From Brevinematales bacterium (GTDB taxonomy: Bacteria > Spirochaetota > Brevinematia > Brevinematales > GWF1-51-8): a stretch of DNA of 64,000 bases. The stretch spans positions 22,056-86,055 of the forward strand of contig JABLXV010000001.1 in the NCBI GenBank assembly GCA_013177895.1. Reading direction: 5' to 3'. Below the pieces are notes generated by a model. The model did no database searches and was not told the origin of the DNA. It saw only the letters and a program-made list of their open reading frames with translations. Each line of letters opens with the position of its first letter. Position 1 is the stretch's first letter. Position numbers and translations under genes: made by a program. This document shows positions 5,266 to 60,995 of the stretch, one piece after another.

Positions 5266-5485
5266 TGTCACCGCGAGGAGCAAGCGACCTGTCCACCTTC
5301 GCCTGCCCATCTTCTATCGAAGATGGAAGACGGGCAGGCGAAGCAGTCTATGTAATTTATTAAATGACAATAGAATAGATTAGTTCTACCGCGCTTCAAT
5401 AATCTTCGTAGCGCGGCATCGCAATGACAGGGTCATTTTCCTATTTGGTAATCTCCGAATTATTATTGAGTTACTAGAACTGCCC
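5266..5485 (+). repeat. Composite palindromic intergenic element, copy 1 (TGTCAYYGCGA family) plus conserved AT-rich tail
   Basis: The left arm is tgtcaccgcgag...gcgaagcagtct with an internal hairpin (cgcctgcccatcttc/gaagatgg..ggcaggcg). A 27-nt AT spacer follows, then the right arm agattagttc...catcgcaatgaca. Positions 5339-5485 align without gaps to 60835-60981, with 10 mismatches in 147 nt by hand count. Confidence 0.85.
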
Positions 5486-5746
5486 TTAATAAAACAGATT
5501 TCTTCTACAGCCCTTTAATAAATCCTTCCGCGCGGCATTACAAAAACGTTATGAGTTTGTCGCCAGACCCCCGCGGGCAGTCTTTTTCCCCTAATACTAT
5601 ACATTATTTAAATTAATTCAAAAAAAAAGTTCAATTTTTTTTGTTTTCAATATACAATATGATTCAATTGTGGAAAATAATATTTTCTTGCAAGTTCTCT
5701 TTTTTTCCAATGATTTAACTAAGGAAAAAGAGGACAAGGAGGCGGT

Positions 5747-8572: not shown

Positions 8573-8584
8573 GGAGAGGAAAAT

Positions 8585-9724: not shown

Positions 9725-9788
9725 TTTAAAGTTAAAAAGGGTAACTATTTAAAATCCGTCTATCGAATTTACTATTTTGGGAGCTGTT

Positions 9789-10646: not shown

Positions 10647-10670
10647 ACGACACGGGTTCCGATTTATCCG

Positions 10671-10871
10671 TTACTTCTCTTTAGGCTTGGATTTCTTCTT
10701 ATCACGGTACGCCGCGATCACCGCGATTATCGCCATCAGGAAGAATATCGCCATGACAGCAAGGGGCGAAAATTCATCGAAGAAGGGGTTCCCTATCAAA
10801 ACCTGGTACAATCCGAAGCACAGCATAATAATCAGGAACGCTATAGAAACCACTCTTACAGAACGCTTCAT
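10671..10871 (-). CDS. Small two-TM membrane protein with Lys-rich tail
   Basis: 66-aa ORF beginning 10 nt downstream of the TPR gene. It has two hydrophobic segments and ends KKKSKPKEK. Confidence 0.45.
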   Translation of the reverse strand: MKRSVRVVSIAFLIIMLCFGLYQVLIGNPFFDEFSPLAVMAIFFLMAIIAVIAAYRDKKKSKPKEK

Positions 10872-10881
10872 ACGTACCCCG

Positions 10882-12237: not shown

Positions 12238-12269
12238 TCCTAACTCCCTAACTCATAAGATTCGGGGTC

Positions 12270-14486
12270 CTAGAGACCCGATAGATACGAATCCACTTTT
12301 CCTATATTTTCATATTTCGGGAACTTGGTTTTCAGTTCCGAAAACACCTTCTTCGCCTGATCGTTGTTCTGCTGGAGAATATAACATTCCCCGAGGCGGA
12401 AATACGCGTCCGCGTTCTTGCCGCCCGATAACTTGATCGACTTCTCATAATAGTTTACCGCATCGGGATAATTCTTCGTCTTATAGAAGATATCCGCGAG
12501 CGCGACCATCGTCTCGATATCCGTCGGGTCTTTATCGAGCGCGTTCTTGTACGCGCCGACCGCATCGTCGTAAATACCGCTCTTTACATACGCGTCGCCC
12601 ATCCCCTTATATCCCATGCTGGAATAAGGGTTGAGGTCTACCGCCTCCTTGAAATTCTTCAACGCCTTGTCGTAATCGCCGCGTTTCAGATAAAGTGTGC
12701 CTAATCCTATATAAGCATCGGAATCTTTAGTGTTAAATTGAAGTCCTTTGTTGTAAGAGGCTTCCGCTTCGGTATATTCCTTCAGCGCTAGGTAACTATT
12801 GCCCAGATTGATGTGGGATGAGGCATAATCGTTCTTGAGCGAAATCGACTGCTGGTACATCTTGATCGCGCTCGCGTGATTCCCGAAATTCGCGAGCATC
12901 CGCGCGTAATTGTAGGCCGTAAGGAAATCCCCGCTGTCCATGCTATAGGACTTCTCGTATGCCTTCAGCGCCTTATTATAATTCTTCATTTCCTCATACG
13001 CGTTCCCCAGTTTCTGGTACGCCTTCGCGGTCGGGCTGACGGCGATACTTTTCTCGAGGAAATTTACCGATTTCTGATACTGTTTATTGTCATAGTAGAG
13101 ATAGCCCACGTTCAGGAGGGGCTTGTAGTTCTCCGGGTCTTTCTGGATAGACTGCTCGAAGTACTTGAGCGCGTTATTGTTATCGTTCAGCTTCGAATAG
13201 GTCAACCCGAGGTTGTAATAGACTTTCTTATAATTCGGGTCGATGTCGATCGTGGTCGTGAACTCCTTGCGGGCGGTCTGGTAGTCCGCCTTGAGGTAAG
13301 CGATCACGCCGAGCATAAAATGCGCGTCCGCGTTATTGGGGTTACTCTGCACCGACTTGCTCAGCTCGCTGCGGGAGTCGTCGTAAAGTTTCTCGTCGAA
13401 AAATATCTTGCCGAGCGTATAATGCGCGGTCGGATGGTTCGGATCCTTACCGAGCGCCTGACGCGACTGATCCATCGCCTTCTGCTTATCGCCCTTCTCG
13501 TAATACGTAAGCCCTTCCTCCGCCCACGCGTCCGCGTTGTTGGGGTCGAGCTTCTTGGCTTCCTCGAACGAATCGACCGCCTTATCGTAATACCCCGCCT
13601 TCCGGTACTTGACGCCGTTGGCAATCAGCTGCTTCGCCTTCTCCTGCGGGGAGAGCCCGTCGGTCGGGAGAGTGACCACCGGTTCGGGCTTCTTTACCGT
13701 ATCGACCGGCTTCTTGCCGGTATCGATACCGGTATCGGCGGGCGACGAATTCTGTACGATGATCGTCGGGTTCTGCTTCTGCGCGTCCTTGAGCTTCTTT
13801 TTCTCGATAATCATTTTACGGAGTTCGTCGATCTTCGGGTTATTCGGTTCGATATCTTCGGCGGTATCCACCAAGTCCAACGCACGGTCGAATTCCTCAT
13901 AACGCAGGTATTCCTCGGCGCGCGCGAGCAGCTTCTGCACCTGCGGGTTCTGGCTGGTATCTTCGATATTGATAATATTCGTCATACCGCCGTTCCCCCA
14001 CGGGTTCGCGGGATTGCCGGCGTTGAGGATAGTCATCACCGTGCCGAGCAGAAGCCCCAGAAGGAGAACCGCGTACCAGATAATAATCATCCTGCGGTCT
14101 TTCTTGTCGCCCTCGTCTTTCTTCGGCGCGCCGGGGTTCATATACTGGGTGATATCCTCCGACGACGCGGTCATCCACAACGGGGAGGCGTCGGTTTGCT
14201 TCGTTTCGGGTTTCTTCGGAGCCGTGGCGGGCTTTCCCTTCTTCGGGGGCGCCGATTTGATGGTTTGAGATTTTACGTTCGATTTGGGGGATTCTTTCTT
14301 CGGGGCGGCCGGTTTTGCTTTAGGGGCGGTTTTGGCCGCGGGTTTCACTGCCGCCGGAGCGGCTTTTTTCTTCACAGGCGCGGCGTCCGCTTTTTTAATA
14401 GCCGGCTTCTTTGCCGCCGTTTTCTTCCCGCCGGATGCGGGGCTTTTTCCTTGCGCGGCGGGGGCCTTTTTTTTGTCTTCAGCCAT
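12270..14486 (-). CDS. TPR repeat protein with Lys/Ala/Pro-rich N-terminus and one TM segment
   Basis: 738-aa ORF with a GGAGGA RBS. The N-terminal ~100 aa are KKPAxK-type low complexity. A TM segment (IIWYAVLLLGLLLGTVMTIL) follows, then more than 10 TPR units (AxxxLGxxYxxxxxYxxAxxxF). Confidence 0.8.
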   Translation of the reverse strand: MAEDKKKAPAAQGKSPASGGKKTAAKKPAIKKADAAPVKKKAAPAAVKPAAKTAPKAKPAAPKKESPKSNVKSQTIKSAPPKKGKPATAPKKPETKQTDASPLWMTASSEDITQYMNPGAPKKDEGDKKDRRMIIIWYAVLLLGLLLGTVMTILNAGNPANPWGNGGMTNIINIEDTSQNPQVQKLLARAEEYLRYEEFDRALDLVDTAEDIEPNNPKIDELRKMIIEKKKLKDAQKQNPTIIVQNSSPADTGIDTGKKPVDTVKKPEPVVTLPTDGLSPQEKAKQLIANGVKYRKAGYYDKAVDSFEEAKKLDPNNADAWAEEGLTYYEKGDKQKAMDQSRQALGKDPNHPTAHYTLGKIFFDEKLYDDSRSELSKSVQSNPNNADAHFMLGVIAYLKADYQTARKEFTTTIDIDPNYKKVYYNLGLTYSKLNDNNNALKYFEQSIQKDPENYKPLLNVGYLYYDNKQYQKSVNFLEKSIAVSPTAKAYQKLGNAYEEMKNYNKALKAYEKSYSMDSGDFLTAYNYARMLANFGNHASAIKMYQQSISLKNDYASSHINLGNSYLALKEYTEAEASYNKGLQFNTKDSDAYIGLGTLYLKRGDYDKALKNFKEAVDLNPYSSMGYKGMGDAYVKSGIYDDAVGAYKNALDKDPTDIETMVALADIFYKTKNYPDAVNYYEKSIKLSGGKNADAYFRLGECYILQQNNDQAKKVFSELKTKFPKYENIGKVDSYLSGL

Positions 14487-14497
14487 AGTTCCTCCCC

Positions 14498-15214
14498 TTA
14501 CATCTCTATATCTTCCATCTGGGAATCCTCTCCCTTACCCTTATCGCCGGGCTTCACATCGCCCAGAACCCCTTCTATATCAGGAAGTTTCGTCGTCACC
14601 TGTACGCCCTTGTTCGTCGACTGAGTATTCGTCCCGCTCGCCAGTAAATCCACCCCGTCGGGCGGAAACTGGAAATTGGTCGCTTTCAGTATCTCAATCG
14701 CCTTCATAATATTCGTTGTCTGCGGTCCCTGCGGCGCGAGCGCGATATAGCTTTCCCATTCGCGTATCACCGATTCCTTATCCCGCAGACGGTAATACGC
14801 CATCCCCTTCGCCCAGTATGTCTGAGTCATCCCGGGGTTCATCGCGTAGGACTTATTAAAATACGCGATGGAATTCGTGTAGTCCTTCTTCAGGTAGTAC
14901 GCATATCCCATCTGGTACAGCACAGTCGACTGAAAATCCGCGGCGCCCGAAAACTCGTAAGCGACCAGGTAATTATCGAGGGCGGAATCGTATTCCTTGT
15001 TGTTCAGGAACAGGTACGCGTTGCCGAGGTAAAAATAGACATTCGCGTCATGGTACCCTTCCTGTATCGCCTTCTTGAACGAGCCGATCGACTGCAGAAA
15101 TTTTTTCTGCTTGTAGAACGCCATTCCGGCCTTATAATTAGGGTTATCTTCCACACTGTAGACAATCGCCAAGCCCAGAAGCATGATGAATAACGCCGTA
15201 ACTATCCGGGTCAT
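14498..15214 (-). CDS. Secreted/anchored TPR repeat protein
   Basis: 238-aa ORF with an N-terminal hydrophobic segment (IVTALFIMLLGLAIVYS) and TPR-like repeats. It is the first gene of a four-gene minus-strand cluster with 10-32 nt gaps. Confidence 0.75.
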   Translation of the reverse strand: MTRIVTALFIMLLGLAIVYSVEDNPNYKAGMAFYKQKKFLQSIGSFKKAIQEGYHDANVYFYLGNAYLFLNNKEYDSALDNYLVAYEFSGAADFQSTVLYQMGYAYYLKKDYTNSIAYFNKSYAMNPGMTQTYWAKGMAYYRLRDKESVIREWESYIALAPQGPQTTNIMKAIEILKATNFQFPPDGVDLLASGTNTQSTNKGVQVTTKLPDIEGVLGDVKPGDKGKGEDSQMEDIEM

Positions 15215-15479
15215 TTTCCGCTCCTTATGGACATCTCATCTTATACTACGCGGTAAACACTTCATTATAACATTCCGCGTAACTTCCGATTTGCCCATAG
15301 TACAATATATCCCGCATTCTTATTTTCGGCAATATATCGGCTTGCATAAGTAAAACAGCCGCGATAACCTGAGTATTATTCCGCGCGATCCCGAATAAAA
15401 AAATCATTTGAGAAATACGCGCGAAAATATTTCCCCACATAATTTTAGCGTTAAATAGCAATAAAGTCAACTGCTGCGC

Positions 15480-15962
15480 AGGCTAAACCCGACTCCACGG
15501 ATGGAGAAGTCCCGCGTGCACATGGATGTGCAGAAGCGGGACGACCCGCAGGACGCGGGAAGTCCCGCAGCGACAGCTTGCCTTCCGTTTCCTACGGGAG
15601 GGGATGTGCAGGAGCGGGACGATTTCATTCTCCAAACTTTATTCAAAAAATTCCCTGCTATATAGAAGCTATTCGGTAAACACATCACTCAGGCTTCGAC
15701 AGGCTCAGCCTGACCGGAGCAAGCACTTTACCCGAAGCACGGGTAGCATTCCCGCAGGGTAACTGTATATTTCCACCGGCCGCCGAGCGCAGCCGAGGCG
15801 CGACCATCAAGTGTCCATGAACGCCACCCGAAGCACGGGTAGCATTCCCGCAGGGGATGCCGATGGGTGTGAATAACCTCTATATCATGCTTCGGCAGGC
15901 TCATGCTTCGGCAGGCTCAGCATGACTCTGCGCGCAACATCTATATTCCCGCGGGGGATGCC
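15480..15962. repeat. Repeat- and hairpin-dense intergenic mosaic
   Basis: A direct repeat acccgaagcacgggtagcattcccgcaggg occurs at 15730-15759 and 15826-15855. A tandem catgcttcggcaggct x2 lies at about 15886-15917. GCGGGAAGTCCCGC-type palindromes are present, together with cttcgacaggctcagcctgac (an A-family unit). Confidence 0.8.
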
Positions 15963-15970
15963 GGCTTAAA

Positions 15971-16639
15971 TTAGTACGTAAACTCCGGGAGAGATGAGAA
16001 CGGATAGATGGGGTTATGGATGAGGTAGCCGTCGCCGCCGAGATACTTGATCTCCTTGCCGTTCATCGAGAACGAGACTCCCTGCACCGCGGTAAACTGC
16101 GCGGCGGTATAGACGATCTGGTAAATCTGTATCTGGTAGCCGAGCGTACCGTAGGAGTTCTGCCCGAACGCGTCGGTAAAATCGATAGTGGCGATGCCGC
16201 CTGTGATGCTGATACTGCGGATTTTCGTCTGGTACGGGATATAGTTCTCGATATCGCCGTCCCCCCGGTAGGAGATCAGCAGATTGAGGGTATCCTGTAA
16301 TAACGTCTGGCTGACCGGGACTACCGCCTCGACGGGTATCAGGCGCACCTTGGTAGCGGACGTTTTCCCGAGATATAACGTTACCTTGATTTCTTTTTCG
16401 CCCGGTAACGCGTTGGTCTGCTCGATTAACGGATTAACGACGGCCGCGTTCGTTTTCATAGTGTTGGTGTTCAGGGGTGAATTGTTGGTGGAAATAAGTT
16501 TACCGAATCCGCCGTCGTAGAGCGTCTTGGAATAGGAGATAAAAAACGCGATAACTCCGGCGGTGACAATCCATATTAACGGGGTATACTTGCCGGTCTT
16601 GCGTTTTCTGCTGCGCGACGAGGTCTTTTTTTCAGGCAT
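15971..16639 (-). CDS. GerMN domain-containing membrane-anchored protein
   Basis: 222-aa ORF with a basic N-terminus and a TM segment. The GerMN-like region reads IATIDFTDAF...YQIVYTAAQFTAVQGVSFSMNGKEIKYLGGDG. Confidence 0.65.
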   Translation of the reverse strand: MPEKKTSSRSRKRKTGKYTPLIWIVTAGVIAFFISYSKTLYDGGFGKLISTNNSPLNTNTMKTNAAVVNPLIEQTNALPGEKEIKVTLYLGKTSATKVRLIPVEAVVPVSQTLLQDTLNLLISYRGDGDIENYIPYQTKIRSISITGGIATIDFTDAFGQNSYGTLGYQIQIYQIVYTAAQFTAVQGVSFSMNGKEIKYLGGDGYLIHNPIYPFSSLPEFTY

Positions 16640-16642
16640 CGA

Positions 16643-17110
16643 CTACGATATTTCTTCTTCTTTCGCTACAAGGAGTTCGTAGAAAGCCTGCGGAGTTTTC
16701 ACCTTTTCAATCGCTTTCTCGAGATCGGTCTTCTCGTAGATCTCGGCGATAATCCTCAGGACTTCGAGCTGCTCGTGCGGCGAATAGTCGTCCGACGCGA
16801 TCGCGGTAAAGAAAAGGTGCGACGGCTTCTTGTCATAAGCGTCGAAATCCTTCCCTTCGGGATCGTAGACCACAATCAGATGCATTCCATCGATACGCGG
16901 GCTGCGCCCGTGCGGGATAGCAAGGCCGTTACCGACTCCGGTAGACCCTTTTTTCTCGCGTTCGAGGATAGCCTTGAACACGTCCTTCTTATCGATACCG
17001 GGATGCGATAGGGATAAAAAGTCCGCGAGTTCCTGCAATATATCTTCTTTGGTCTTTCCTTCCAATCCGACCTTAACATATTCCGGCTTTAAGAGTTCCG
17101 CCAGTTTCAT
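16643..17110 (-). CDS. ptsN: PTS EIIA type-2 (PtsN/EIIA-Ntr-like) regulatory protein
   Basis: The phospho-His loop is GVGNGLAIPHGR, preceded by the N-terminal VKVGLEGKTKEDILQEL. I prefer the ATG at 17110 (GGAGG 8 nt upstream) over 17170. Confidence 0.8.
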   Translation of the reverse strand: MKLAELLKPEYVKVGLEGKTKEDILQELADFLSLSHPGIDKKDVFKAILEREKKGSTGVGNGLAIPHGRSPRIDGMHLIVVYDPEGKDFDAYDKKPSHLFFTAIASDDYSPHEQLEVLRIIAEIYEKTDLEKAIEKVKTPQAFYELLVAKEEEIS

Positions 17111-17188
17111 AACCGCCTCCATCCAAATATTTATTGGAATAGCTCTAATAATTAGAGTATTATAATTCAATTCGTAAATAAAGACAAC

Positions 17189-18934
17189 TTAAATTTCATT
17201 ATCTAATTTAACTTTTGTACCCACAAACGAATTCCCGTAAAAATCGAAAAACTCCTTCATCGTATGCAGGTGACGGATATTCTGCAGGAGCGTATTCTCA
17301 TGCATCCGGTAAAAGAAATTATCCCCGTTCAGGAAATCTTCCACATATTTTACGCCGAACCCGTTTTTTTTGCAATATTCTTCAATCGATTTTAACACTT
17401 CCAAATCGAACACTAAAAACGTGTGGGGTTCTATCTCGATTACTTTATTTTTAAAGTTTTCCTTGACCTGCGAGGACTCCTGCGAGTTCAGCTGGATGAT
17501 CTTGTATTGCTTCATATCATGGATATCCAAACTGCCGATAAAACTCTCGATGCCGGTCACTACGTTTTCCGGGAGTTCGTGCTTGGAGTGCTTGGCGAGG
17601 AACTTCAGAATCTCGTCCTTCTTGATACCGTAGGCGAACGAACGGTAGATCGACTCCTTGGTGATCTTGAATATCGAGATAGTCTGGATAGTGACCGGTT
17701 CCGCGATCACGGCGAGCTTCAGGAGCACCTTGGGCTTCAGATACGGCTCGACAATCACCTCATAATTCGGCTCGACTATAAAGCTCCGGTTCTTGAACTT
17801 CGCGGAGAAGTCGGCGTTCTTCAGGAGAGAACTATGGGGTTCGTTCATTATTATATAATCCTTCGCGATTGAGACCGAACCCTCGTCGCTGCGTTTGATA
17901 GCCGCGATATTCTCGTTCTCGAGCGCCTTCACGAAAAACGTGAATTTCAGCTCCTGGTGCTGAATGTACTGTTTGAGGTTTTTTACCTCGTTCTTCAGCA
18001 CGAAGTACATTTCGCAGTTCAGGAAATAGAAAAATAATTCCCGCAGCGATAACCCGTTAGGACGGTTAGCCAGTATCTTCAATGTCATAAAGTAGCTTTT
18101 TTTGAAATCGAACTTGTCCATAAATTTATACAGGAACACGATAAAGAGCTGTTCGTTCACCGAGAGGGAAACGATACGTTCGAATATGTTCTTATTGACT
18201 ACTATCCGGTTATTCAGCTTCTCGAAAAACCCGAACTGCGAGAGCTTTTTTATAATATTATCGATCCGTTCCTTCGGGGCGAAATCGGAGAAATAGTCGG
18301 ACATTTTCACAAAGTCGATCTTGTGGATTTCGTTGGTCTCGGAACTGCGCGGAGAGAATGTCACAATATACGACAGCATCCCCGCGATCAGGGTAATATG
18401 CTGATAGGTGGAAAGTTCCTCACGGAGTTCTCCGAGCTCGATATTTTCTTCGTTCTCAGTCGGGGCATACCCCTCTTCTTCCATAATCGCCGCGATACTG
18501 TCGAGGAACACTTTAGGTGCGAACAGGAGATTGTACCGTTTCAGCCGCTCCAGCTTGAATAAAAGGAACTTTCCCATCAGGGATTCTATTGTTTTGCGGA
18601 CGACTGCCGCGTCGAACTTATAGATCATCGAAATTATCCCTATCATCGAATCGATCTGCTCGAACACGAGCCATCCGAAGCATTGGTTCAGTATATAGAC
18701 TAGAAGACGCTCGTCGCTGTTTAACTGCGAATAGATTTCCCTCGCGTTCTCGCGGAAATACGAATAGACATGGTGCATTCTCGACGTGTTTTCACTGGTG
18801 TACAGCGATAACTCATGGTCTTTTTGCAGGTAGAAGTCGGCAATTTTCTTTACCAGTTTGGGTTCTTCCGGTATCATCCTGTCCATCGCAGGGAGTTCCA
18901 TAAACGGAACCATCTCGTTATTAACGGTCAGCAT
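17189..18934 (-). CDS. XPB-associated protein with p52/Tfb2-like and XPB-NTD-like C-terminal region
   Basis: 581-aa ORF starting 8 nt after the XPB stop. The segment FIVEPNYEVIVEPYL...IFKITKESIYRSFAYGIKKDEILKFLAKHSKHELPENVVTGIESF parallels the XPB N-terminus FYRITPISLWNAAANGMPLESILAILEQYKKYDIPKNIVEYV. No catalytic motif is evident. Confidence 0.6.
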   Translation of the reverse strand: MLTVNNEMVPFMELPAMDRMIPEEPKLVKKIADFYLQKDHELSLYTSENTSRMHHVYSYFRENAREIYSQLNSDERLLVYILNQCFGWLVFEQIDSMIGIISMIYKFDAAVVRKTIESLMGKFLLFKLERLKRYNLLFAPKVFLDSIAAIMEEEGYAPTENEENIELGELREELSTYQHITLIAGMLSYIVTFSPRSSETNEIHKIDFVKMSDYFSDFAPKERIDNIIKKLSQFGFFEKLNNRIVVNKNIFERIVSLSVNEQLFIVFLYKFMDKFDFKKSYFMTLKILANRPNGLSLRELFFYFLNCEMYFVLKNEVKNLKQYIQHQELKFTFFVKALENENIAAIKRSDEGSVSIAKDYIIMNEPHSSLLKNADFSAKFKNRSFIVEPNYEVIVEPYLKPKVLLKLAVIAEPVTIQTISIFKITKESIYRSFAYGIKKDEILKFLAKHSKHELPENVVTGIESFIGSLDIHDMKQYKIIQLNSQESSQVKENFKNKVIEIEPHTFLVFDLEVLKSIEEYCKKNGFGVKYVEDFLNGDNFFYRMHENTLLQNIRHLHTMKEFFDFYGNSFVGTKVKLDNEI

Positions 18935-18942
18935 AAGTTACC

Positions 18943-20643
18943 CTATTCGCCGGTTTCGGACAGGACAAGCGGCATAGAAAGCTCGCCGTTCTCCTGTTTA
19001 TTGGAATAATCGACAATCGTATATTTATAGCCCTGTTCCAAAAGGAACATCTGCCGTTTTCTGGAAAAATCCTCTTCCAGCGTATCCTTCGAGACCAGCG
19101 CGTAGAAGTAGGATTTCCCGGAATCGGGACGAAGTATCCGTCCCAGACGCTGGGCTTCCTCCTGACGCGACCCGAACACTCCCGATATCTGGATCGCCAC
19201 ATCCGCGTCGGGAAGGTCGATCGAGAAATTCCCCACCTTCGATATCACGAGAGCGGATATCTTTCCCGCCCGGAACGCGTCGTATATCTCGGTACGCTCG
19301 TTGTTCGGCGTGCTTCCCGTTATCAGCGGGAGGTCGAACAGTTCGGCGATCTCGCGGAGCTGGGTCAGGTAATGCCCGATGATGAGGATATGATGGTTCT
19401 TATAGCGTTTGATGAGCATGTCGATCATATCGACCTTATTGGGGTTCTCGCTTGCGATACGGAATTTGGTGCGGTTGTTGGCGTTTTTATAAAATTCGTA
19501 ACCCTCCGAAGTCAGAGGGATGCGGATTTCATAGCAGAACGCCTCCGCGATCCAGCCTTCCTTCTCGAGCGTCTTCCACGGGTACTCATAGACCTTCGGC
19601 CCGATGAGCGTGAAGACCTCCGTCTCGAGATTATCCTCCCGGACCAGCGTCGCGGTCAATCCCAGACGGCGTTTGCTCTGAATTGCGGTCGTCATCCGGA
19701 AGATCGGCGCGGGCAGGAAATGCACCTCGTCGTAAATAATCAGGCCCCAGTTCTGGCGGCTGAATATGTCCATATTACGGAACCCGCCCTCGGAATTCTT
19801 CCGGTATATCAGCATATTATAGGTCGTAATCGTGATCGGGCGGATGCTTTTCTTATCGCCCGTGTATTCCCCGATCTGATCCTCGGTCAGCGTCGTCTTG
19901 TCCATGATCTCGCGTATCCATTGCCGTACCGAATCCACGCTGGTGGTGATAATCAGGGTGTATTCCTTGATATCCTGCATGATGCCGATACCGACCACCG
20001 TCTTCCCGGCCCCGCACGGCAGGACTATCACGCCGCTGCCCTCTCTCCACTTCGAGAAGCTGTACACCCCTTCGGACTGGTAGTAACGCAGCGCGAAACG
20101 CTGGTTGCCGAGGGTGACTGCGCGGAGAGTGATATCGAGACTGTTGCCGCTCTCGTACCCGGCGATATCGTGCACGGGTATCAGGTGACGGATGAGGGTC
20201 GCCTTCAACTCGCCGCGGTACTTCTTCTCGAATACGAAACTCCCGTCGTCGTCTTTTTTCGCGTAATCGGCGGTAAATTTTTCTACTTTTTCGGTGATTT
20301 TAGGATTGTTGATTCGGAGGCGCAGATTTTCCTCGCCGTCCTTCTCGAGGATGACCTGCCCGTAGGCGAGATAGTGCCGTTTCACATACTCGACAATATT
20401 CTTCGGGATGTCATATTTTTTATACTGCTCAAGAATTGCGAGTATGGATTCCAACGGCATACCGTTCGCCGCCGCGTTCCATAAGGAAATCGGCGTGATC
20501 CGGTAAAAATGCAGGTGCTCCGGGGTTTTTACCAATTCGGAAAAACCGATGATCTGTTTCCGCACCTCATCGAAATCCGGATGATGGGTGTCGAGCAGAA
20601 GCGTCTTGTCGGATTGTACTACCATGGCTTTTTTTCCGGTCAT
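18943..20643 (-). CDS. XPB/Ssl2 (ERCC3/RAD25)-type SF2 DNA helicase
   Basis: 566 aa. Walker A is VIVLPCGAGKTVVG and the DEVH box is LIIYDEVHFLPAP. Further motifs are GLTATLVRED and the motif VI-like QEEAQRLGRILR. An N-terminal damage-recognition-like domain is present. Confidence 0.9.
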   Translation of the reverse strand: MTGKKAMVVQSDKTLLLDTHHPDFDEVRKQIIGFSELVKTPEHLHFYRITPISLWNAAANGMPLESILAILEQYKKYDIPKNIVEYVKRHYLAYGQVILEKDGEENLRLRINNPKITEKVEKFTADYAKKDDDGSFVFEKKYRGELKATLIRHLIPVHDIAGYESGNSLDITLRAVTLGNQRFALRYYQSEGVYSFSKWREGSGVIVLPCGAGKTVVGIGIMQDIKEYTLIITTSVDSVRQWIREIMDKTTLTEDQIGEYTGDKKSIRPITITTYNMLIYRKNSEGGFRNMDIFSRQNWGLIIYDEVHFLPAPIFRMTTAIQSKRRLGLTATLVREDNLETEVFTLIGPKVYEYPWKTLEKEGWIAEAFCYEIRIPLTSEGYEFYKNANNRTKFRIASENPNKVDMIDMLIKRYKNHHILIIGHYLTQLREIAELFDLPLITGSTPNNERTEIYDAFRAGKISALVISKVGNFSIDLPDADVAIQISGVFGSRQEEAQRLGRILRPDSGKSYFYALVSKDTLEEDFSRKRQMFLLEQGYKYTIVDYSNKQENGELSMPLVLSETGE

Positions 20644-29849: not shown

Positions 29850-29958
29850 TAGATACACGACTAAGCAACCGGTCAATCGGTAGAACGCTTCTACCACTCT
29901 ACACACATTTTTGACAAAGTCTCATTATTATAGTACGATTCTATTCCCGGAGGTTACT

Positions 29959-30648
29959 ATGCCGCGTTTAGCATTGCTCTTTCTCGTCCTGTTCCTTGCG
30001 CCTATCATCCTGTTCGCCGATAAGATCGAGCCCGGCCTTAACGGGAAACTCGGGGCGACCGCCGGTTCAGGATCGCTCGACCTCTCCGCCCTCAATTCCC
30101 GTTTCTCTGCATACGGCTACCCCGCCCTGCCCGAATGGTACTTTACCCTCGGCGGGATATACCAGCTCTCCGACGGGGGTATTATCGCGGAGTTCGAATA
30201 CCTCCGCTATATCAATAATTCCGCTACCGGTAACGGGTTTATCGCGACCGCCGGGGGATGGTGCTCATGGGTAAACGTCGGGTATGCATTGATCAATCTG
30301 CCGTTTTTACAGATTTACCCGATTGCGGGGATCGGCGGCGGCACATTGAGCGTCAAGGTGACCGAAGATTTTTCCGTTAACGGGTTCGACAATATTCTCT
30401 CTCAGACGAATAAAATCATCGAGCTGGAAAAAGCGACCTATACCGCGTTCATCGGCGGCGGGGTGGATTTTGTGATCGATATGGGCCCGGAGTCTCAGGT
30501 CGATCTCCTGCTTGGAGCGCGCGCGGGATATGTGTTCGACCTGTCCGGCTCGTCGGGATGGTCGTCACTGGGAGTCTCGCTACCCAGCGGGCCTTCGTCG
30601 GGATTCTCCGGCCCCCTCATCCGCGTCTTCATCGGCATCTACGAATAG
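29959..30648 (+). CDS. Putative outer-membrane beta-barrel protein
   Basis: I prefer the ATG at 29959 (GGAGG upstream). The signal peptide is MPRLALLFLVLFLAPIILFA. The sequence is Gly- and aromatic-rich with an alternating pattern. No specific family is recognised. Confidence 0.45.
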   Translation: MPRLALLFLVLFLAPIILFADKIEPGLNGKLGATAGSGSLDLSALNSRFSAYGYPALPEWYFTLGGIYQLSDGGIIAEFEYLRYINNSATGNGFIATAGGWCSWVNVGYALINLPFLQIYPIAGIGGGTLSVKVTEDFSVNGFDNILSQTNKIIELEKATYTAFIGGGVDFVIDMGPESQVDLLLGARAGYVFDLSGSSGWSSLGVSLPSGPSSGFSGPLIRVFIGIYE

Positions 30649-30897
30649 CGACCCGCACGATGCGGGAAGTCCCGCGATGACAGGATGTCATAGAGCGGGG
30701 CGACATTGCACGATGCGGGGAGTCCCGCGATGACAGGATGTCAAGGAGCGGGGCGACATTGCACGATGCGGGAAGTCCCGCGATGACAGGATGTCATGGA
30801 GCGGGGCGACATTGCACGATGCGGGGAGTCCCGCGATGACAGGATGCCAAGGAGCGGGGCGACATTGCACGATGCGGGGAGTCCCGCGATGACAGGA
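30647..30897 (+). repeat. 53-bp tandem repeat, about 4.6 copies, each unit with two short palindromes
   Basis: Units start at 30655, 30708, 30761, 30814 and 30867. The consensus is gcacgatgcgggRagtcccgcgatgacaggatgYcaWRgagcggggcgacatt. It contains GCGGGAAGTCCCGC (first copy 30662-30675) and ATGACAGGATGTCAT. A degenerate partial unit overlaps the stop codon at 30646-30648. Confidence 0.95.
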
Positions 30898-30911
30898 CGC
30901 CCACTGCGTGA

Positions 30912-30961
30912 CGGCTATCCCCGATATGAAGCGAACACCTCATATTAGAATATAGCCCGCG
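30912..30961 (+). repeat. C-family module GCTAWYCCCGAT-N26-ATARCCCGYG, copy 1
   Basis: The module runs from cggctatccccgatat to atagcccgcg. The spacing of 38 nt between box starts matches copies at 45161 and 56994. It is preceded by cactgcgtga, whose complement flanks copy 2. Confidence 0.7.
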
Positions 30962-38461: not shown

Positions 38462-38567
38462 CCAAAGAAAGACTGCCCGCCTTGATGCCGCTCCTGAGAA
38501 GAGTGACGCGAAACGGGAAACGCCGTAACTCCTCCCCCGCTTTACTGGATCGGCCGACCCGCCATCC
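38462..38567 (-). repeat. D-family repeat, copy 1 (inverted relative to 57119..57222)
   Basis: The reverse complement aligns with 57119-57222. A 33-nt perfect core, aaagcgggggaggagttacggcgtttcccgttt, lies at 38511-38543 (as complement) and at 57143-57175. Confidence 0.85.
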
Positions 38568-38910
38568 ATGGCTCCTGTCGGCACTTCCCCCGTCCTTTGG
38601 GGTCGTCGAACAACGGCGTTTCCATCCGTTTCGCTTAGAAGAGTCACGGCATAGCGACGGGGGTAAATACACAACAGCCAAAAACAAAGACGGAATACAA
38701 AGTTCTTTCATTCCCCGGCTGTTTTGTCTTTTGCATTTTCTTTCCTCCGCGCTTAATAAAGCGCTTCCCGCTACCGGGAAATCCGACCGAGGGCGTTTGT
38801 CCGATGCTCACCCGCTTTCGCTTTTGACGAGCATATCATGCGAGTTACGCCCGACTCGGATTCCCCGGCTCTTTCCCGAAGCTTTATCATTGCGCGGCAT
38901 CCTTACTTTG

Positions 38911-39435: not shown

Positions 39436-40449
39436 TTATCTAAATCCAAAAAAGTCTTGAATACTATCGATTTCTAAATAATCTCCAAAACCAATACTGC
39501 CTTCCAGATAAACATAATACAGATCCTGAAAATCAAATTTGGATAAATAGTATTTGAATCCAAGTGAAATATAGACAGGCATATTCATATATCCCCATTG
39601 CAGTTTTGTCCTATAAGAAGCATTTAAATCCAAATATGGAGTTTGTAATAATCCTGCTTCAACTTCAAGATATACATCTTTCCTAGTTTTATATGAAGGA
39701 TAAGTATATAAAGGTAAAAGAATTCTTAGTACAGGATAGGAGGTGACATTTTGGATATGGATAAATCTTAATAGTGATAAACCGAAACCAAATTTCTTGG
39801 ATATTATCAAATTTAGATCAAGAAACTCTCCCTCCCAGCTTCCTCCCGGTAAACTATTAAGATTAAGAATTATATTTACATAACTATACCAAAATAAATG
39901 GGATGAATCATTATATGAAACTGAAGGTTTTTGATAAGAAACATTTGCATTCTGCTCTTCCTCAAGAAAAAAAGAAGTTGAAACTGAGGTAATTATCTCT
40001 CTTGTATATATATCAACCAAGCGGGCATTTATTGAAATTTCCCCGTTTATTTCAGAAACGGTTCCTAATAAAACATAATCGGCTCCGATCATCTGCCCAA
40101 TTTTCTCTAGCTTTTTACTATCAACTACTCCCGATAAAGCTAATTTTTGTTCTTTCACTAAGACATTTAGTTGAGCGTTTTCTACTACCGTAAAACCTTT
40201 TTGACGTAACATATTAACCAATTTTTCTGAAAAATCCATTGCGATAATTGCTATTTCTTTATTATTATATGAAACAAAATTTGCAACTGCGATCACTCCA
40301 TCATTAGGCAAAACATACCATTTGATCTTATCAATTATTATGTTTGCGGAATCTTCTGACTTTTTTACTATCGATTGATTTGAGCAACTTGAAATCAATA
40401 AAAAGATCATAATTATGGCAAAGATTAATTTAAAACAATATTTTTGCAT
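39436..40449 (-). CDS. Lipoprotein with CsgG/LpoB-like N-terminal domain and beta-rich C-terminal domain
   Basis: 337 aa with lipobox LLISSC. The segment VIAVANFVSYNN..FSEKLVNMLRQKGFTVVENAQLNVLVKEQKLALSGVVD..IGQMIGADYVLLGTV matches the CsgG/LpoB-type pattern. The C-terminal ~170 aa are aromatic-rich and alternating, ending DFFGFR. Confidence 0.6.
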   Translation of the reverse strand: MQKYCFKLIFAIIMIFLLISSCSNQSIVKKSEDSANIIIDKIKWYVLPNDGVIAVANFVSYNNKEIAIIAMDFSEKLVNMLRQKGFTVVENAQLNVLVKEQKLALSGVVDSKKLEKIGQMIGADYVLLGTVSEINGEISINARLVDIYTREIITSVSTSFFLEEEQNANVSYQKPSVSYNDSSHLFWYSYVNIILNLNSLPGGSWEGEFLDLNLIISKKFGFGLSLLRFIHIQNVTSYPVLRILLPLYTYPSYKTRKDVYLEVEAGLLQTPYLDLNASYRTKLQWGYMNMPVYISLGFKYYLSKFDFQDLYYVYLEGSIGFGDYLEIDSIQDFFGFR

Positions 40450-40462
40450 TCTATTATTTCAA

Positions 40463-40846
40463 TTAATTGATATTTAGATTAAACTTATAGTTTTCATCAT
40501 TTCTAATGAATTTATTAAAGAATTTTCCTTTCGAAGGTGAATTAATAAACTCTTCCCAAAAATATGATTTCATACCTTCATATATATAATACTTTTTACC
40601 TTTTACAAAAAATATTAAAAAGACTCCTCTTTTACTATTATAAAAATATATTAGCTTTTCTATTGCGGTACTGTCAGGCATAACAGAATAAAAAGTAAAA
40701 TTATCAAAGTAAAACTTCGTCGCCTCTTCTTCAGAATAAAAATTCTGATATTCTTCTTCACTCCTACTCTTACTAGTACATGATAAAACGATTAAGCCTA
40801 AAAAAAAGATAATAAAAGTGGTTTTAATAAGATTTCTTCTATTCAT
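40463..40846 (-). CDS. Lipoprotein with KTSC-like domain
   Basis: 127 aa with lipobox IVLSC. The segment IEKLIYFYNSKRGVFLIFFVKGKKYYIYEGMKSYFWEEFINSPSKGKFFNKFIR resembles the KTSC pattern (Y....L.v.F..G..Y.Y..v.......f..a.SkG.yfn..Ir). Confidence 0.55.
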   Translation of the reverse strand: MNRRNLIKTTFIIFFLGLIVLSCTSKSRSEEEYQNFYSEEEATKFYFDNFTFYSVMPDSTAIEKLIYFYNSKRGVFLIFFVKGKKYYIYEGMKSYFWEEFINSPSKGKFFNKFIRNDENYKFNLNIN

Positions 40847-47694: not shown

Positions 47695-48177
47695 ATGTCA
47701 GAAAAAACATCGATGCAAAGAACTGATGCTATGTCCCAGAAGGAAATCAAGAACGTTAGAAAAACCGTGAAAATAACCGGTTATACCCATGTTTTTATCG
47801 GGTTTATATGCCTTATGATTGTAGGTCTGGTACTCCTGATTATTGGAATAATCTACCCTCAAACTCATATCACTGTAGCGGGAGGGATATTTACAATACT
47901 CTCGGGAATTCTCGCCTTCATAATCGGCAGGTTGGGGAAAAATTTACAAAAAGATATGGCAGGTTCTGAAAAAATCACAGGATTTTCAATAATAACAGGA
48001 AAAAGGATTGATGCCGATTCATCCCTGAATAAAACCGTCAAACAGAATATCCTCATCTTAAACGACCTTGAATTCGAGGTACCTGAAAAAACATACAATC
48101 AGTTCGAGGCCGGCGAGACAGTGGAAATCCAGTATACCAAATCCACCGGAATCCTGATATCTATCCATAAACGCTAG
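47695..48177 (+). CDS. Two-TM membrane protein, tandem paralogue 2 (unknown function)
   Basis: 160 aa with the same architecture as 47113..47598. It is visibly more AT-rich than paralogue 1. Confidence 0.65.
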   Translation: MSEKTSMQRTDAMSQKEIKNVRKTVKITGYTHVFIGFICLMIVGLVLLIIGIIYPQTHITVAGGIFTILSGILAFIIGRLGKNLQKDMAGSEKITGFSIITGKRIDADSSLNKTVKQNILILNDLEFEVPEKTYNQFEAGETVEIQYTKSTGILISIHKR

Positions 48178-48755
48178 ACAACCCCGTTCAGAATTTTATC
48201 CATAACCCCCTTGATATACGGGCTTTCGAACTCCTCCGCGAGCGCGTCCATATTCGCGACATCCCACCCCTTCCGGCCGAAAAACGTCTCCTTCCGCTGG
48301 ATACCCAACATTTTAAATCCGGCCTTCTCGTATGCGCGCACGCCGCGTTTATTGAACTCCTTCACCTGGAGACGGATGCTTTCCAGATTGAGGATATTGA
48401 ACCCGTAGTCGAGGATCAGCCGGGTCGCCTCGGCGCCGTACCCCTTCCCCCAGAACTCCTTCTCCCCGATCATGATGCCGAACGAGGCGGTACGGTTGAC
48501 CCAGTCGATCTCGTGAAGCCCGCAGTCGCCGATATGCGTGTCCGTCGCCAGATCGACAATCGCGAACCCGTGATCTCCCGCCTTCAGCCCTCCGGTCAAC
48601 TGCTCGCCGATATTCACCTCGTTCGGGGCGATCCGAATACTCATATTCATCGACGTCTCGACATCGTTCAGCCATCCGGCGGATTTTTTACAGTCGTCCG
48701 GGTCTCGCGGGGATAGGTAGCAGAGTTTTCCGGTCAGTTTTTTATAGTAGGGCAT
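48174..48755 (-). CDS. GNAT family N-acetyltransferase (RimJ/RimL-like), paralogue A
   Basis: 193 aa. The acetyl-CoA site region is FWGKGYGAEATRLILDYGFNILNLESIRLQVKEFNKRGVRAYEKAGF. Confidence 0.85.
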   Translation of the reverse strand: MPYYKKLTGKLCYLSPRDPDDCKKSAGWLNDVETSMNMSIRIAPNEVNIGEQLTGGLKAGDHGFAIVDLATDTHIGDCGLHEIDWVNRTASFGIMIGEKEFWGKGYGAEATRLILDYGFNILNLESIRLQVKEFNKRGVRAYEKAGFKMLGIQRKETFFGRKGWDVANMDALAEEFESPYIKGVMDKILNGVV

Positions 48756-48758
48756 GGT

Positions 48759-49319
48759 TCATTCCTTGATAAAATTCACTACATACGGGCTTTCGAACTC
48801 GTCGGCGAGGATATCCATCATCACGAAATCGTAACGCTTCCCGGCGACCTGCACCGCCTTCCGCCATCGCCCGATCTGTTTGAACCCGGCCTTCTCGTAC
48901 GCGCGGATCGCGCGTTTATTGTATTCCATCACCTTCAGGAAAATGTTATAGAGATTGAGGATATTGAAACCGAAGTCGAGGATCAGGCGCGTCGCCTCCT
49001 CGCCGTACCCCTTGTTCCAGTAATCCTTGTCGCCGATAAAGATGCCGAATTCCGCGTGACGCCCGATCCACCCTATATTATGAAGCCCGCAGTTCCCGAT
49101 CAGCTTATCGGTCGCGAGGTCGACTATCCCGAATACGGGGTTGCCCTCTTTCAGATTGGTATCGATAAATTCACGCTCATTCACCAGATTGATCGTCGTC
49201 AGCGAGAGGTTGACCGTGATCTCGAAATCGTTCAGCCATTCGACATATTTCGGCGCGTCGTCCGGGTTGATCGGCGACAGGTAGCACTTTTTCCCCACGA
49301 TTCGTTTAAAGTACGGCAT
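48759..49319 (-). CDS. GNAT family N-acetyltransferase (RimJ/RimL-like), paralogue B
   Basis: 186 aa. The segment YWNKGYGEEATRLILDFGFNILNLYNIFLKVMEYNKRAIRAYEKAGF is collinear with paralogue A along its whole length. Confidence 0.85.
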   Translation of the reverse strand: MPYFKRIVGKKCYLSPINPDDAPKYVEWLNDFEITVNLSLTTINLVNEREFIDTNLKEGNPVFGIVDLATDKLIGNCGLHNIGWIGRHAEFGIFIGDKDYWNKGYGEEATRLILDFGFNILNLYNIFLKVMEYNKRAIRAYEKAGFKQIGRWRKAVQVAGKRYDFVMMDILADEFESPYVVNFIKE

Positions 49320-57118: not shown

Positions 57119-57222
57119 GGATGGCGGGTCGGACGACCCCGCAAAGCGGGGGAGGAGTTACGGCGTTTCCCGTTTTGCGATCCTTCTTCCCAGAAGCGGC
57201 ATCAAGGCGGGGCGCTCTTTGG
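57119..57222 (+). repeat. D-family repeat, copy 2
   Basis: It aligns to the reverse complement of 38462-38567. The first 14 nt are identical, and so is a 33-nt core at 57143-57175. Flanking segments have mismatches and one or two small indels. Confidence 0.85.
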
Positions 57223-57234
57223 ATACAGAAAGTA

Positions 57235-57954
57235 TCATATCTCCCCTGCGTTTCCGGCATCGGGGGACTCCTTTGTTTCTTCTAATTGGACTGATTTACA
57301 TTTGCCTTCTTTAATAAGATTCACAACTCGTTGTATTCCTTCCATCGCGAAGATAATCTTTACTCTGCTATACCGAACTTCCGGTGCTCCTTCTAATAGG
57401 GGAAAATCTTTTAGCTTATCTATTCCTATTTTCCAAGCGATTATACTTATCATTTCCAAATTATATCCATATCCGTCTTCGCCCATGTGTTTGCTGAAAA
57501 AGTAGTTATAATTCGTAGGAGAGACCCCGAAGAAACAAATAATAAATGATGTTCCGTCCCGTTTGTGAAACTTCAGATACCCCATATTTGTATTCTGTTT
57601 CCGGAGACCGCCTGCGATAAATCGTACTTCCTCGATTTCATTCCACTCTGCGAATTTCTTTTCGCCGATGAATATCCGGTACCAGAACTTTTTCCCATAG
57701 ATACCATCGTTCTTTAAAGTGACGTTCCATAATCCGGTAATAATCTGGGTAATAAAATGCGGATATTCTCCTGTATAAACACACCAAAATGTTAAAACCA
57801 AGGGTAGAATAAACGCTCCGGAAAATGTACCCGCAATAAAAATTCCATACACTAATAGTATAATTAAAAATCCTGCAATAAAATATGGTAAAATAAACTC
57901 GAAAAGGAATACCCCCATAGGTCTTTGCTTGTAGCTTACGTTAATTTGTGCCAT
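57235..57954 (-). CDS. Membrane protein, candidate immunity partner of 57941..59080
   Basis: 239 aa. Its ATG lies inside the last codons of the upstream gene (14-nt overlap), with AGGA upstream. It has 2-3 N-terminal TM segments and a soluble domain. GC is low (38% in the sample line 57781-57840). Confidence 0.6.
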   Translation of the reverse strand: MAQINVSYKQRPMGVFLFEFILPYFIAGFLIILLVYGIFIAGTFSGAFILPLVLTFWCVYTGEYPHFITQIITGLWNVTLKNDGIYGKKFWYRIFIGEKKFAEWNEIEEVRFIAGGLRKQNTNMGYLKFHKRDGTSFIICFFGVSPTNYNYFFSKHMGEDGYGYNLEMISIIAWKIGIDKLKDFPLLEGAPEVRYSRVKIIFAMEGIQRVVNLIKEGKCKSVQLEETKESPDAGNAGEI

Positions 57955-59080
57955 GTGGTTTTCCTAAATCCTTCATTGATTTTTTCCACCATTCGCCAAA
58001 AAAATCAAAGAGAGTTTCAACTGAAGAAAATACCGTACCTAGAGCAAATTGTCCGGCATGCGCTCCCTGCATCAATGCCCCGGTTTGCGCCCCGCTGGTA
58101 ATTGTAAATCCTGTATTTATACCGAATCCGGCCGAACCGACGATTAACGAACCTACTCCCGCTTTAAAAAGTGTTTGCGCCCATCCTCCTTTATTCCAAT
58201 AACCATCTAACGTCTGACCATCAATCAGGAACTGACTTGAAACATCCTCCGCTGTATAATAAATAGCAGAAAACTTTAAAGCAGAGTTTACTGTATCAAA
58301 AGCGCGCGTCCCGGTGCCTACAGCGCCGAAAACCGATCCTGAAAATCCCGCCCATAATAAATCCGCTCCCGGATTTTCCCATTGATATCCTGGCATTAGT
58401 CTTATTTTCAACCCCTCCATTCCCGCTTTCAATCCTATGTTTAATGCCGCATTGATAATCGCAGAATCGAAAACCGCTCCCCCGGTCGTTCCCAATACAC
58501 CGGGTAATAATGGAAGTCCTATTCCGGTAGATATTGCCAAGCCTACAAGTGCAGCGCCGCCCGTCCAATTCGCAAGTGTCTTATTTTGATCTTGTTTGTC
58601 AGCATAGAACTGATTGATGTCATTATAATGATCCCCCCAGAAGAAGTTACCATTGACGGTTTGAGTCGGCAGTGTTGGTCCATACGAATATCCGCCTGCA
58701 ACCCCACTTCCCGCAGCGGCCAGTTGAGCCTGCGCCTGGGCGGCTTCCTTCGCCGCCTTGGCCGCCTGCGCGGCGTCCCAGTTCTGCCATGACGCCATCT
58801 CCATATCCTTCGCCTTTTCCGCCAAATCCGCCTGCGCGAACTCCATGAACTTGTCGATCGCTTCCTGTCCGGTATAAACCTTCGGGTTGCCGTCCCTGTC
58901 CTTCTCCGTCGGGCTGGTGTACCCGTTCTTCATGATGTCGTTGATCTTTCCCGCGAGTTGCTGTTTCAACGCCTCCGCGATCTGCTTCGTGCCCTCTTCG
59001 CCGGATACCGAACGGTCGAAATAATTGAGCGCTTTCGCGAGCTTCATTATATCGGGATTCATGCTCTCGAACTGTTCCAT
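57941..59080 (-). CDS. Glycine-zipper-rich protein, candidate membrane-active toxin (helical N-domain + Ala/Gln linker + Gly-rich hydrophobic C-domain)
   Basis: 379 aa with no signal peptide. The linker reads AAQAAKAAKEAAQAQAQLAAAG. The C-terminal 230 aa carry repeated small-xxx-small segments (TGGAALVGLAISTGIGLPLLPGVLGTTGGAV, AGVGSLIVGSAGFGINTGF). GC drops from 60% (58861-58920) to 43% (58141-58200) within the gene. Confidence 0.55.
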   Translation of the reverse strand: MEQFESMNPDIMKLAKALNYFDRSVSGEEGTKQIAEALKQQLAGKINDIMKNGYTSPTEKDRDGNPKVYTGQEAIDKFMEFAQADLAEKAKDMEMASWQNWDAAQAAKAAKEAAQAQAQLAAAGSGVAGGYSYGPTLPTQTVNGNFFWGDHYNDINQFYADKQDQNKTLANWTGGAALVGLAISTGIGLPLLPGVLGTTGGAVFDSAIINAALNIGLKAGMEGLKIRLMPGYQWENPGADLLWAGFSGSVFGAVGTGTRAFDTVNSALKFSAIYYTAEDVSSQFLIDGQTLDGYWNKGGWAQTLFKAGVGSLIVGSAGFGINTGFTITSGAQTGALMQGAHAGQFALGTVFSSVETLFDFFGEWWKKSMKDLGKPHGTN

Positions 59081-60785: not shown

Positions 60786-60981
60786 TGTCACTGCGAGCCT
60801 GCCTTCTACCGAAGGTAGACAGGGAACGCAGTAACGAAGCAGTCTATGTAATTTATTAAATGACAATAGAATAGATTGCTTCTACCGCGCTTCAATAAGT
60901 TTTGTAGCGCGGCATCGCAATGACAGGGTTATTTTCCTATTTGGTAATTTCTGAATTATTATTGAGTTATTAGAATTGCCC
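60786..60981 (+). repeat. Composite palindromic element, copy 4 (TGTCAYYGCGA family) plus conserved AT-rich tail
   Basis: The left arm is tgtcactgcgagc..acgaagcagtct. A spacer separates it from the right arm agattgcttct..catcgcaatgaca (ending at 60925). A tail extends to 60981. Positions 60835-60981 align to 5339-5485 at 137 of 147 positions. Confidence 0.85.
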
Positions 60982-60995
60982 TATATTATAAAACT

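Follow-up and report, generated by a model that had tools for sequence, protein, structure and literature searches.

A candidate polymorphic toxin–immunity cassette with an exchangeable C-terminal domain in a Brevinematales genome

Introduction

Polymorphic toxins are a main currency of bacterial competition, and most of those catalogued come from Proteobacteria, Bacteroidota and Firmicutes and use delivery machines that are known. Literature searches brought up no account of toxins or secretion systems in Brevinematales, and a gene pair from this spirochaete order raises the question of whether the same toxin logic is found there. The pair occupies positions 57235-59080 (minus strand) of a 64,000-nucleotide (nt) stretch from the metagenome-assembled genome (MAG) of a Brevinematales bacterium (assembly GCA_013177895.1, contig JABLXV010000001.1, positions 22,056 to 86,055), henceforth referred to as the window. 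A preliminary description, made from the letters of the window, had proposed that a 379-amino-acid (aa) protein with a glycine-zipper C-terminal domain and the membrane protein encoded by the overlapping downstream gene are a toxin and its immunity protein, the toxin domain having been replaced together with the immunity gene. From the composition of the two genes and from their homologues, it is probable that they form a polymorphic toxin–immunity cassette, in which a swappable C-terminal domain (C-domain) would be a membrane-acting toxin and the downstream product its immunity protein.

Results

A chimeric gene overlapping a membrane protein gene

The two open reading frames (ORFs), their sizes and their 14-nt overlap were as previously described: the 379-aa ORF ends with a TAA stop codon at 57941-57943 and the 239-aa ORF begins with an ATG at 57952-57954. 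Together with an AGGA sequence resembling a ribosome-binding site (RBS) shortly before this ATG, the overlap suggests that translation of the two genes is coupled. The parts of the locus are given below (GC3, GC content at third codon positions; homologous proteins are designated P, and loci or contigs L).

57941-59080 (-): candidate toxin ORF, 379 aa; exact match to HPY53_00325, a hypothetical protein of a Brevinematales MAG
58775-59080 (-): conserved N-terminal domain (N-domain), aa 1-102; helical, charged, GC3 ~0.8 (host-like), without signal peptide
58709-58774 (-): Ala/Gln-rich linker, aa 103-124, AAQAAKAAKEAAQAQAQLAAAG; identity to P0002 and P0006 ends right after ...EAAQAQA(Q), and GC3 drops
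57941-58708 (-): variable C-domain, aa 125-379, candidate toxin; GC3 0.37; homology to P0009, P0010 and P0011
57962-57965 (-): AGGA, RBS-like site, 7 nt 5' of the 239-aa ATG and within the 3' end of the toxin gene; direct sequence reading
57235-57954 (-): candidate immunity ORF, 239 aa; exact match to HPY53_00320, a hypothetical protein of the same MAG

The mean GC content of the window is 50%. GC3 was 0.79 in the first 124 codons of the 379-aa gene, 0.37 in the rest of it (aa 125-379) and 0.38 in the 239-aa gene, the remaining 37 ORFs of the window having values of 0.66 +/- 0.13. Sliding windows of 30 codons placed the fall in GC3 between codons ~110 and ~130 (~nt 58690-58750), in and just after the Ala/Gln-rich linker; the break was sharper at codon position 3, and its location inside the first gene indicates that the chimera is real. 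The composition breakpoint reported earlier is thus real in windowed GC3, although it lies about 50 nt upstream of the position first given (58640-58680). On the other side, GC climbs back at ~57270, where a conserved repeat starts, leaving a low-GC block of ~1.45 kb. The other cassettes that carry the N-domain were all alike in this respect (GC of 0.58–0.60 in the head, 0.40–0.42 in the tail and 0.25–0.30 in the downstream gene).

One N-terminal domain with different C-termini

The N-terminal ~120 aa recur in five other Brevinematales-type proteins (P0002, P0003, P0006, P0007 and P0008), at 53–97% identity, as found with word-indexed and exhaustive HMMER searches. P0002 (HPY53_14425), a paralogue from the same genome, matches the window protein at 97% identity between aa 12 and the AQAQAQ of the linker (~aa 118) and is unrelated beyond it. 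The other four are 53–88% identical over ~100–120 aa and have other C-termini; P0003 and P0006 are encoded on a single Joint Genome Institute contig (L001), while P0007 (L004) and P0008 (L003) come from 'Spirochaetes bacterium GWF1_51_8'. In an all-against-all BLASTP comparison the window C-domain was without similarity to those of P0002, P0003 and P0008, so that the N-domain is found with at least three C-terminal types, that of the window and at least two unrelated ones. The expectation that the same N-terminus would be found joined to different C-termini elsewhere was therefore borne out.

The tails of the window protein, P0002 and P0006 all diverge directly after ...EAAQAQA, which suggests that the linker served as the recombination junction between the conserved and the variable parts. 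What lies downstream changes as well. The genes for P0002, P0003 and P0008 are each followed by one encoding a 111–117-aa protein with two C-terminal transmembrane (TM) helices. The small products are homologous to one another (E 6e-11) and unrelated to the 239-aa protein, i.e. cassettes with other C-termini carry a different family of immunity candidates.

Searches with the N-domain gave no Pfam or NCBIfam match at E<=1, no relative in the Protein Data Bank (PDB) and none in viral contigs, and a metagenome scan returned the GWF1 contigs again and nothing further. Hydropathy revealed no hydrophobic or signal-like segment in aa 1-168. Upstream, the N-domain cassettes have only ~25 nt before the ATG in common, and hence no conserved 5' element, and the flanks of different cassettes share no genes. 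Presumably, the N-domain is a delivery or trafficking module that, with the linker, would serve export or delivery. Between two of the cassettes (L001 1782-2117) we observed a DUF3467 gene, which was looked for at the other loci and not found.

The C-domain and its partner on other scaffolds

An exhaustive search of 1.84 billion representatives (E<=1e-3) matched aa ~130-320 of the window protein to P0009 (E 1.8e-8), P0010 (E 2.9e-5; pairwise 7e-13) and P0011 (E 5.1e-5). P0010 (L006) is a 946-aa RHS protein, with RHS repeats and the RHS-associated core TIGR03696 (aa 383-468, 63.8 bits) followed by a C-terminal extension, and the homologous region, aa 708-884, is its C-terminal tip past the core. 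P0009 belongs to an array at L007 in which modules open with a common prefix like EEIERSRWIGEQWER and close with differing domains, and which also holds a second member of the C-domain family, of 324 aa. The occurrence of the domain both past the RHS core of P0010 and in this array agrees with the earlier proposal that it is a replaceable module. Rich in Gly, Ala, Ser and Thr (17% Gly, 12% charged), the window C-domain is marked by the motif NFFWGD (aa 146-151), a hydrophobic Gly-rich segment (aa 174-197, nt 58490-58561) and the invariant G201 and G217.

The 239-aa protein has two strong N-terminal TM segments (aa 12-59, nt 57778-57921; Kyte-Doolittle peak 2.49), the N-terminal helices that had been noticed at the outset, and these predicted segments place the immunity candidate in the membrane. 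The hairpin they form is followed by a soluble domain of ~170 aa with conserved GIYGK and WEEI motifs. Homologues of this protein, 27–31% identical, adjoin the homologous C-domain at two other loci. At L006 the next gene after P0010 (3071-3730) encodes a two-TM homologue (E 8e-13, 27% identity) that has both GIYGK and WEEI in common with it, and at L007 the 324-aa toxin homologue is followed by a 249-aa homologue (tblastn E 1e-15); behind P0009 there is only a degraded fragment of an immunity-candidate gene. Pairing of the toxin–immunity type, first suggested by the overlap of the two genes, is thus repeated where the C-domain recurs.

A further homologue, P0005 (L002 2-1234), is 65% identical to the 239-aa protein and is encoded without a toxin gene, on a contig whose source metagenome also gave the GWF1 contigs L008 and L009, which points to an orphan immunity gene; no orphan module was found within the window itself. 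The three adjacencies of putative toxin and immunity genes, together with this orphan, make up the classic signature of polymorphic toxin systems (PMC3482391). The modular architecture is evident from these comparisons, as is the co-inheritance of the candidate toxin domain and its putative immunity gene on three unrelated scaffolds.

Two observations concern the surroundings of these homologues. The P0005 gene lies 6 nt after a gene with a JAB/MPN motif (HSHPHG...SSVD) and is followed by the same intergenic repeat that lies behind the cassettes (see below). The L007 array (7986-20267; prefix EEIERSRWIGEQWER) is located in a low-GC (34%) genome, GCA_017880035.1; its C-termini comprise a TseH-like one (a type VI secretion system effector domain), two of the window's C-domain family and others that are unannotated, interspersed with small putative immunity genes behind the modules and with IS1595/Mutator transposases.

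Boundaries of the cassette

On their 3' side, all cassettes enter a mosaic intergenic repeat, of which two modules were recognized at the window locus.

57207-57272 (-): 3' boundary repeat module with the short hairpin GATAC-TTTCT-GTATC; aligned with the sequence behind the immunity genes of L001, L002 and L003
57118-57179 (no strand assigned): second repeat module, in the 3' flank; inverted copy at 38507-38568, 92% over 62 nt

The last ~12 codons of the immunity ORF come from the first module. Its copies in L001 and L002, which stand behind immunity genes of different kinds, show 92% conservation, and in both the hairpin stem reaches 11 bp. This arrangement would plausibly result if cassettes were exchanged by homologous recombination in the conserved head on one side and the 3' repeat on the other. 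The C-domain and the 239-aa inner-membrane protein would then represent one foreign low-GC module (~nt 57270-58720) acquired by recombination, the 5' crossover falling within the part that codes for the linker and the 3' one within the repeated intergenic element. A role of the 3' repeat akin to an integron attC site was considered and set aside, the 5' boundary of the cassette lying inside a coding region.

The other copy of the second module (38476-38568) is next to a second low-GC island of the window. A different intergenic repeat, of ~150 nt, was found in the window (38741-38888, minus strand) and at L001 1570-1730, L002 1310-1470, L003 3184-3339 and L004 9451-9599, directly behind toxin cassettes in L001 and L002. 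Its five copies fold into a long nested stem (38 pairs, 6 with compensatory changes in RNAalifold), the L001 copy having a folding z of -2.8, and it has no Rfam match. An unannotated structured RNA is one possible identity, and a palindromic element of Brevinematales resembling miniature inverted-repeat transposable elements is another.

Searches for known domains, phages and secretion genes

Scans of both proteins and their relatives against Pfam, NCBIfam, PHROGs and PADLOC gave nothing above threshold; the sub-threshold noise consisted of SLATT_1, BrxA, a PHROG of unknown function and DUF4781. In the 379-aa protein, hmmscan against Pfam and NCBIfam at E<=1 found no LXG, WXG100, PAAR, RHS, TPS/filamentous haemagglutinin or MafB-N domain and no match to the catalogued Tox, Ntox and Imm families. 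RHS/YD repeats and the RHS core are likewise absent from it, the core being present only in the homologue P0010, and a 'LAG' at aa 42-44 is unconserved in the homologues.

A possibility to be weighed is that the 379-aa protein is a structural or phage-derived protein, for instance part of a tape measure or tail that includes a Gly-rich stretch, given that Gly/Ala-rich low complexity and long predicted helices do occur in tape-measure proteins. Homology of this kind, which would have contradicted the toxin proposal, was not found: PHROGs gave nothing at E<0.05 (the best hit, of unknown function, had E 0.058), tblastn no match in 50,697 phage records or in plasmids, and viral contigs no relative. 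The flanking genes read as housekeeping ones, with an ORF upstream that we take, from its translation read by eye, to be alanine/cation symporter-like, and ORFs downstream that by the same reading are presumably of trehalose metabolism. A phage origin of the protein appears scarcely credible.

Membrane action, export and the alternatives

If the pair is a toxin–immunity cassette, the 379-aa protein would consist of a lineage-specific N-domain (~100 aa) of host composition and a linker, joined to an exchangeable C-terminal toxin domain. In cells that lack the immunity protein, Gly-rich hydrophobic helices of the toxin would enter the cytoplasmic membrane, with loss of its integrity or potential. 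The immunity protein would neutralise the toxin within or at the membrane through its two-TM hairpin and cytoplasmic domain, and coupled translation would keep the producers protected. We infer both the toxicity and the protection by the 239-aa protein from the genomic arrangement described above.

That the C-domain acts on the membrane is likely, judging from its predicted hydropathy and the nature of its partners. The segment at aa 174-197 has a Kyte-Doolittle value of 1.88, aa 185-221 and 301-330 are also moderately hydrophobic, and a hydrophobic Gly-rich segment lies at the equivalent position in all members of the family, just past a NFFWGD...Y..K motif. All immunity candidates, cognate and non-cognate, are membrane proteins by hydropathy. 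In the alignment of five C-domains the invariant residues were one Asn and two Gly, and no conserved constellation of His, Cys, Ser or acidic residues was present.

Several observations weigh against the proposed mechanism and are considered here with the explanations that they favour. Just one segment of the C-domain passed a strict hydropathy threshold for TM helices. The counts of small-residue motifs were close to those of composition-preserving shuffles (GxxxG, 9 vs 7.0; small-xxx-small, 33 vs 27.6; zipper, 11 vs 8.9; p = 0.08–0.6), the p value for the 11 zipper instances (small-xxx-small-xxx-small) being 0.29, so that the 'glycine zipper' is a matter of composition and not of demonstrated periodicity. 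Of the glycine-zipper domain originally described, the composition rich in small residues and one strong hydrophobic segment stand, and the spacing is no more frequent than composition predicts. AlphaFold2 models had a pLDDT (predicted local distance difference test) of 42 for the full protein from a single sequence and of 34 for the C-domain from a four-sequence alignment, values too low for either to be used in support of a helical membrane fold of the C-domain; Foldseek against the PDB with the full-protein model (pLDDT 42) gave no match at E<1. The C-domain family is also tiny. In the exhaustive search eight proteins were found, three of which match the C-domain with modest E values (1.8e-8 to 5e-5), and a word-indexed profile search with the C-domain alignment found two proteins only.

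Both the single strict TM segment and the lack of enriched spacing would suit a polymorphic toxin whose C-domain is not a pore-former or ionophore but an enzyme or a binder of a specific target, e.g. a protease or a lipid or cell-wall enzyme. Peptidoglycan hydrolases (TseH, Peptidase_C92 and MepA-like) make up the modules that neighbour the family members at L007 and L005. Sequence and profile searches of the PDB with the N-domain, C-domain and immunity alignments gave marginal matches only, to SN4m (E 0.006) and DegS (E 0.014), the latter a weak match of the C-domain family profile (positions 77-211) to the DegS protease domain. The DegS match was rejected: the score is marginal, the query is compositionally biased, and the position equivalent to the catalytic Ser is unconserved among sequences whose only invariant residues are N, G and G. 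Membrane-embedded immunity proteins also fit a membrane-acting toxin better, and we regard an enzymatic or target-binding C-domain as unlikely.

Export is a second point on which the evidence is adverse. Neither the protein nor the scanned ORFs of the window yielded a secretion signal, a trafficking domain or secretion genes, and export is therefore assumed. This agrees with the preliminary description, which had recognised no secretion-associated domain or neighbouring secretion gene, and holds for Pfam, NCBIfam, hydropathy and the window ORFs. Such an absence is what would be expected of an intracellular toxin–antitoxin (TA) or abortive-infection module, in which the N-domain would act in sensing or regulation and a trigger would cause the C-domain to permeabilise the membrane of its own producer, with no export. 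The tight overlap of the two genes resembles that of TA operons, and there is a match to SLATT_1, a two-TM suicide-effector domain, which at 16.5 bits (profile NF033634, E 0.006) is below the curated cutoff of 41. Set against this, there was no significant PADLOC match, and the company kept by the homologues is of another kind. One homologous C-domain forms the tip of an RHS protein, a type of scaffold on which toxins are delivered, others stand in an array of orphan toxins together with TseH, and the immunity gene without a toxin at L002 fits best if the toxin comes from outside. The homologue borne on an RHS protein, the orphan arrays and the toxin-less immunity gene would suggest that the 379-aa protein is exported, and a purely intracellular module is distinctly unlikely.

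Lastly, several relatives are broken, which indicates that some copies decay. The toxin gene of L004 (7585-8979) is split in two ORFs; P0011 (L005 5387-6540) is frameshifted and continues in another frame (ORF 6118-6540); P0008 (L003 10001-11245) has an out-of-place 21-aa insert in its N-domain; and the immunity gene behind P0009 is a remnant. One might see in the window pair, too, the decaying remains of an old insertion, with a chimeric gene that is no longer expressed or functional, the more so as the end of its immunity ORF runs into the repeat element. Yet both of its ORFs are intact and full length compared with their homologues, the RBS is plausible and the start coupled, and around the start of the toxin gene the sequence is conserved with that of L003 and L004. 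We consider a relic very unlikely, and a polymorphic cassette with a membrane-acting toxin remains the probable explanation of the locus.

Other features of the window

The second foreign-looking island (39436-40846, minus strand; GC 0.24–0.30, GC3 ~0.22) is bordered by intergenic repeats and encodes a FlgO/CsgG/LpoB-like lipoprotein (337 aa) and a KTSC-domain protein (127 aa); low-GC sequence continues from it to ~38960, with apparent small ORFs. A tandem array at 30655-30919, just downstream of the ORF at 29911-30648, has at least five copies of a 53-nt unit with 82–98% identity. Two intergenic copies of a 148-nt direct repeat (5339-5486 and 60835-60982; 93% identity) are 55 kb apart, and the second of them is just upstream of an ORF at 60996 that we take, again from its translation read by eye, to be GGDEF/EAL-like. 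Adjacent paralogous genes of ~190 aa are found at 48174-48755 and 48759-49319 (minus strand), with DNA 70–72% identical over 300 nt.

Discussion

With this locus, the logic of polymorphic toxins would extend to a spirochaete order that has hardly been studied. Three parts of the locus are without annotation: a carrier domain that has no known link to secretion, a candidate toxin domain shared with RHS proteins and a membrane immunity family. The carrier N-domain offers a handle for finding toxin export in Brevinematales, and a new membrane-targeting antibacterial protein may be at hand in the compact toxin–immunity pair. Bounded by a linker and a repeated intergenic element, the cassette also provides a clean example for studies of module exchange. 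Going further, it is possible, if rather doubtful, that the N-domain is the recognition module of an undescribed Brevinematales route of export or delivery, and that the NFFWGD C-domain with its two-TM partner constitutes a new cross-phylum family of membrane-targeting toxin–immunity pairs, shared with RHS toxins.

Comparison with known systems

The closest framework is that of the polymorphic toxin systems (Zhang, de Souza, Anantharaman, Iyer & Aravind 2012, PMC3482391). In common with them, the locus has a conserved N-terminus with interchangeable candidate toxin domains at the C-terminus, an adjoining downstream immunity gene that changes with the toxin, orphan modules, and a C-domain found on several scaffolds. 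Unlike them, the window protein is small (379 aa), has no signal peptide and matches none of the trafficking, Tox, Ntox or Imm families of Pfam and NCBIfam at E<=1. With RHS toxins it has the C-domain and the immunity gene in common, both homologous to the tip of P0010 and the gene that follows, but it lacks RHS/YD repeats and the core, the module being grafted instead on a helical domain of ~120 aa.

Two other likenesses, functionally the closest, are in our view analogies and not memberships. The organism is a diderm of the spirochaete type, in which the type VII secretion system T7SSb is not known. The LXG toxins of type VII secretion systems, TelE with its immunity protein TipE (PMC10434224) and EsxX (PMC12744356), are analogous in design, with a small helical N-domain, a linker, a Gly-rich membrane-damaging C-terminus and a specific immunity protein. 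The window protein differs from them in having no LXG or WXG100 match and no sequence similarity to TelE or EsxX, and while TipE is a small DUF5085 protein (PMC10434224), the immunity candidate here combines two TM segments with a soluble domain. The ionophore toxins of contact-dependent inhibition (CDI), carried as CdiA-CT, are polymorphic and membrane-inserting, and their integral-membrane CdiI immunity proteins, likewise polymorphic, are only ~30% identical within a group (Halvorsen et al. 2024, PMC11630599). They fold as a five-helix bundle, have no detectable sequence relationship to the window protein and come in a CdiA, two-partner secretion or VENN context that the window lacks. Even so, the ~30% identity among CdiI proteins resembles the 27–31% found among the immunity homologues described here.

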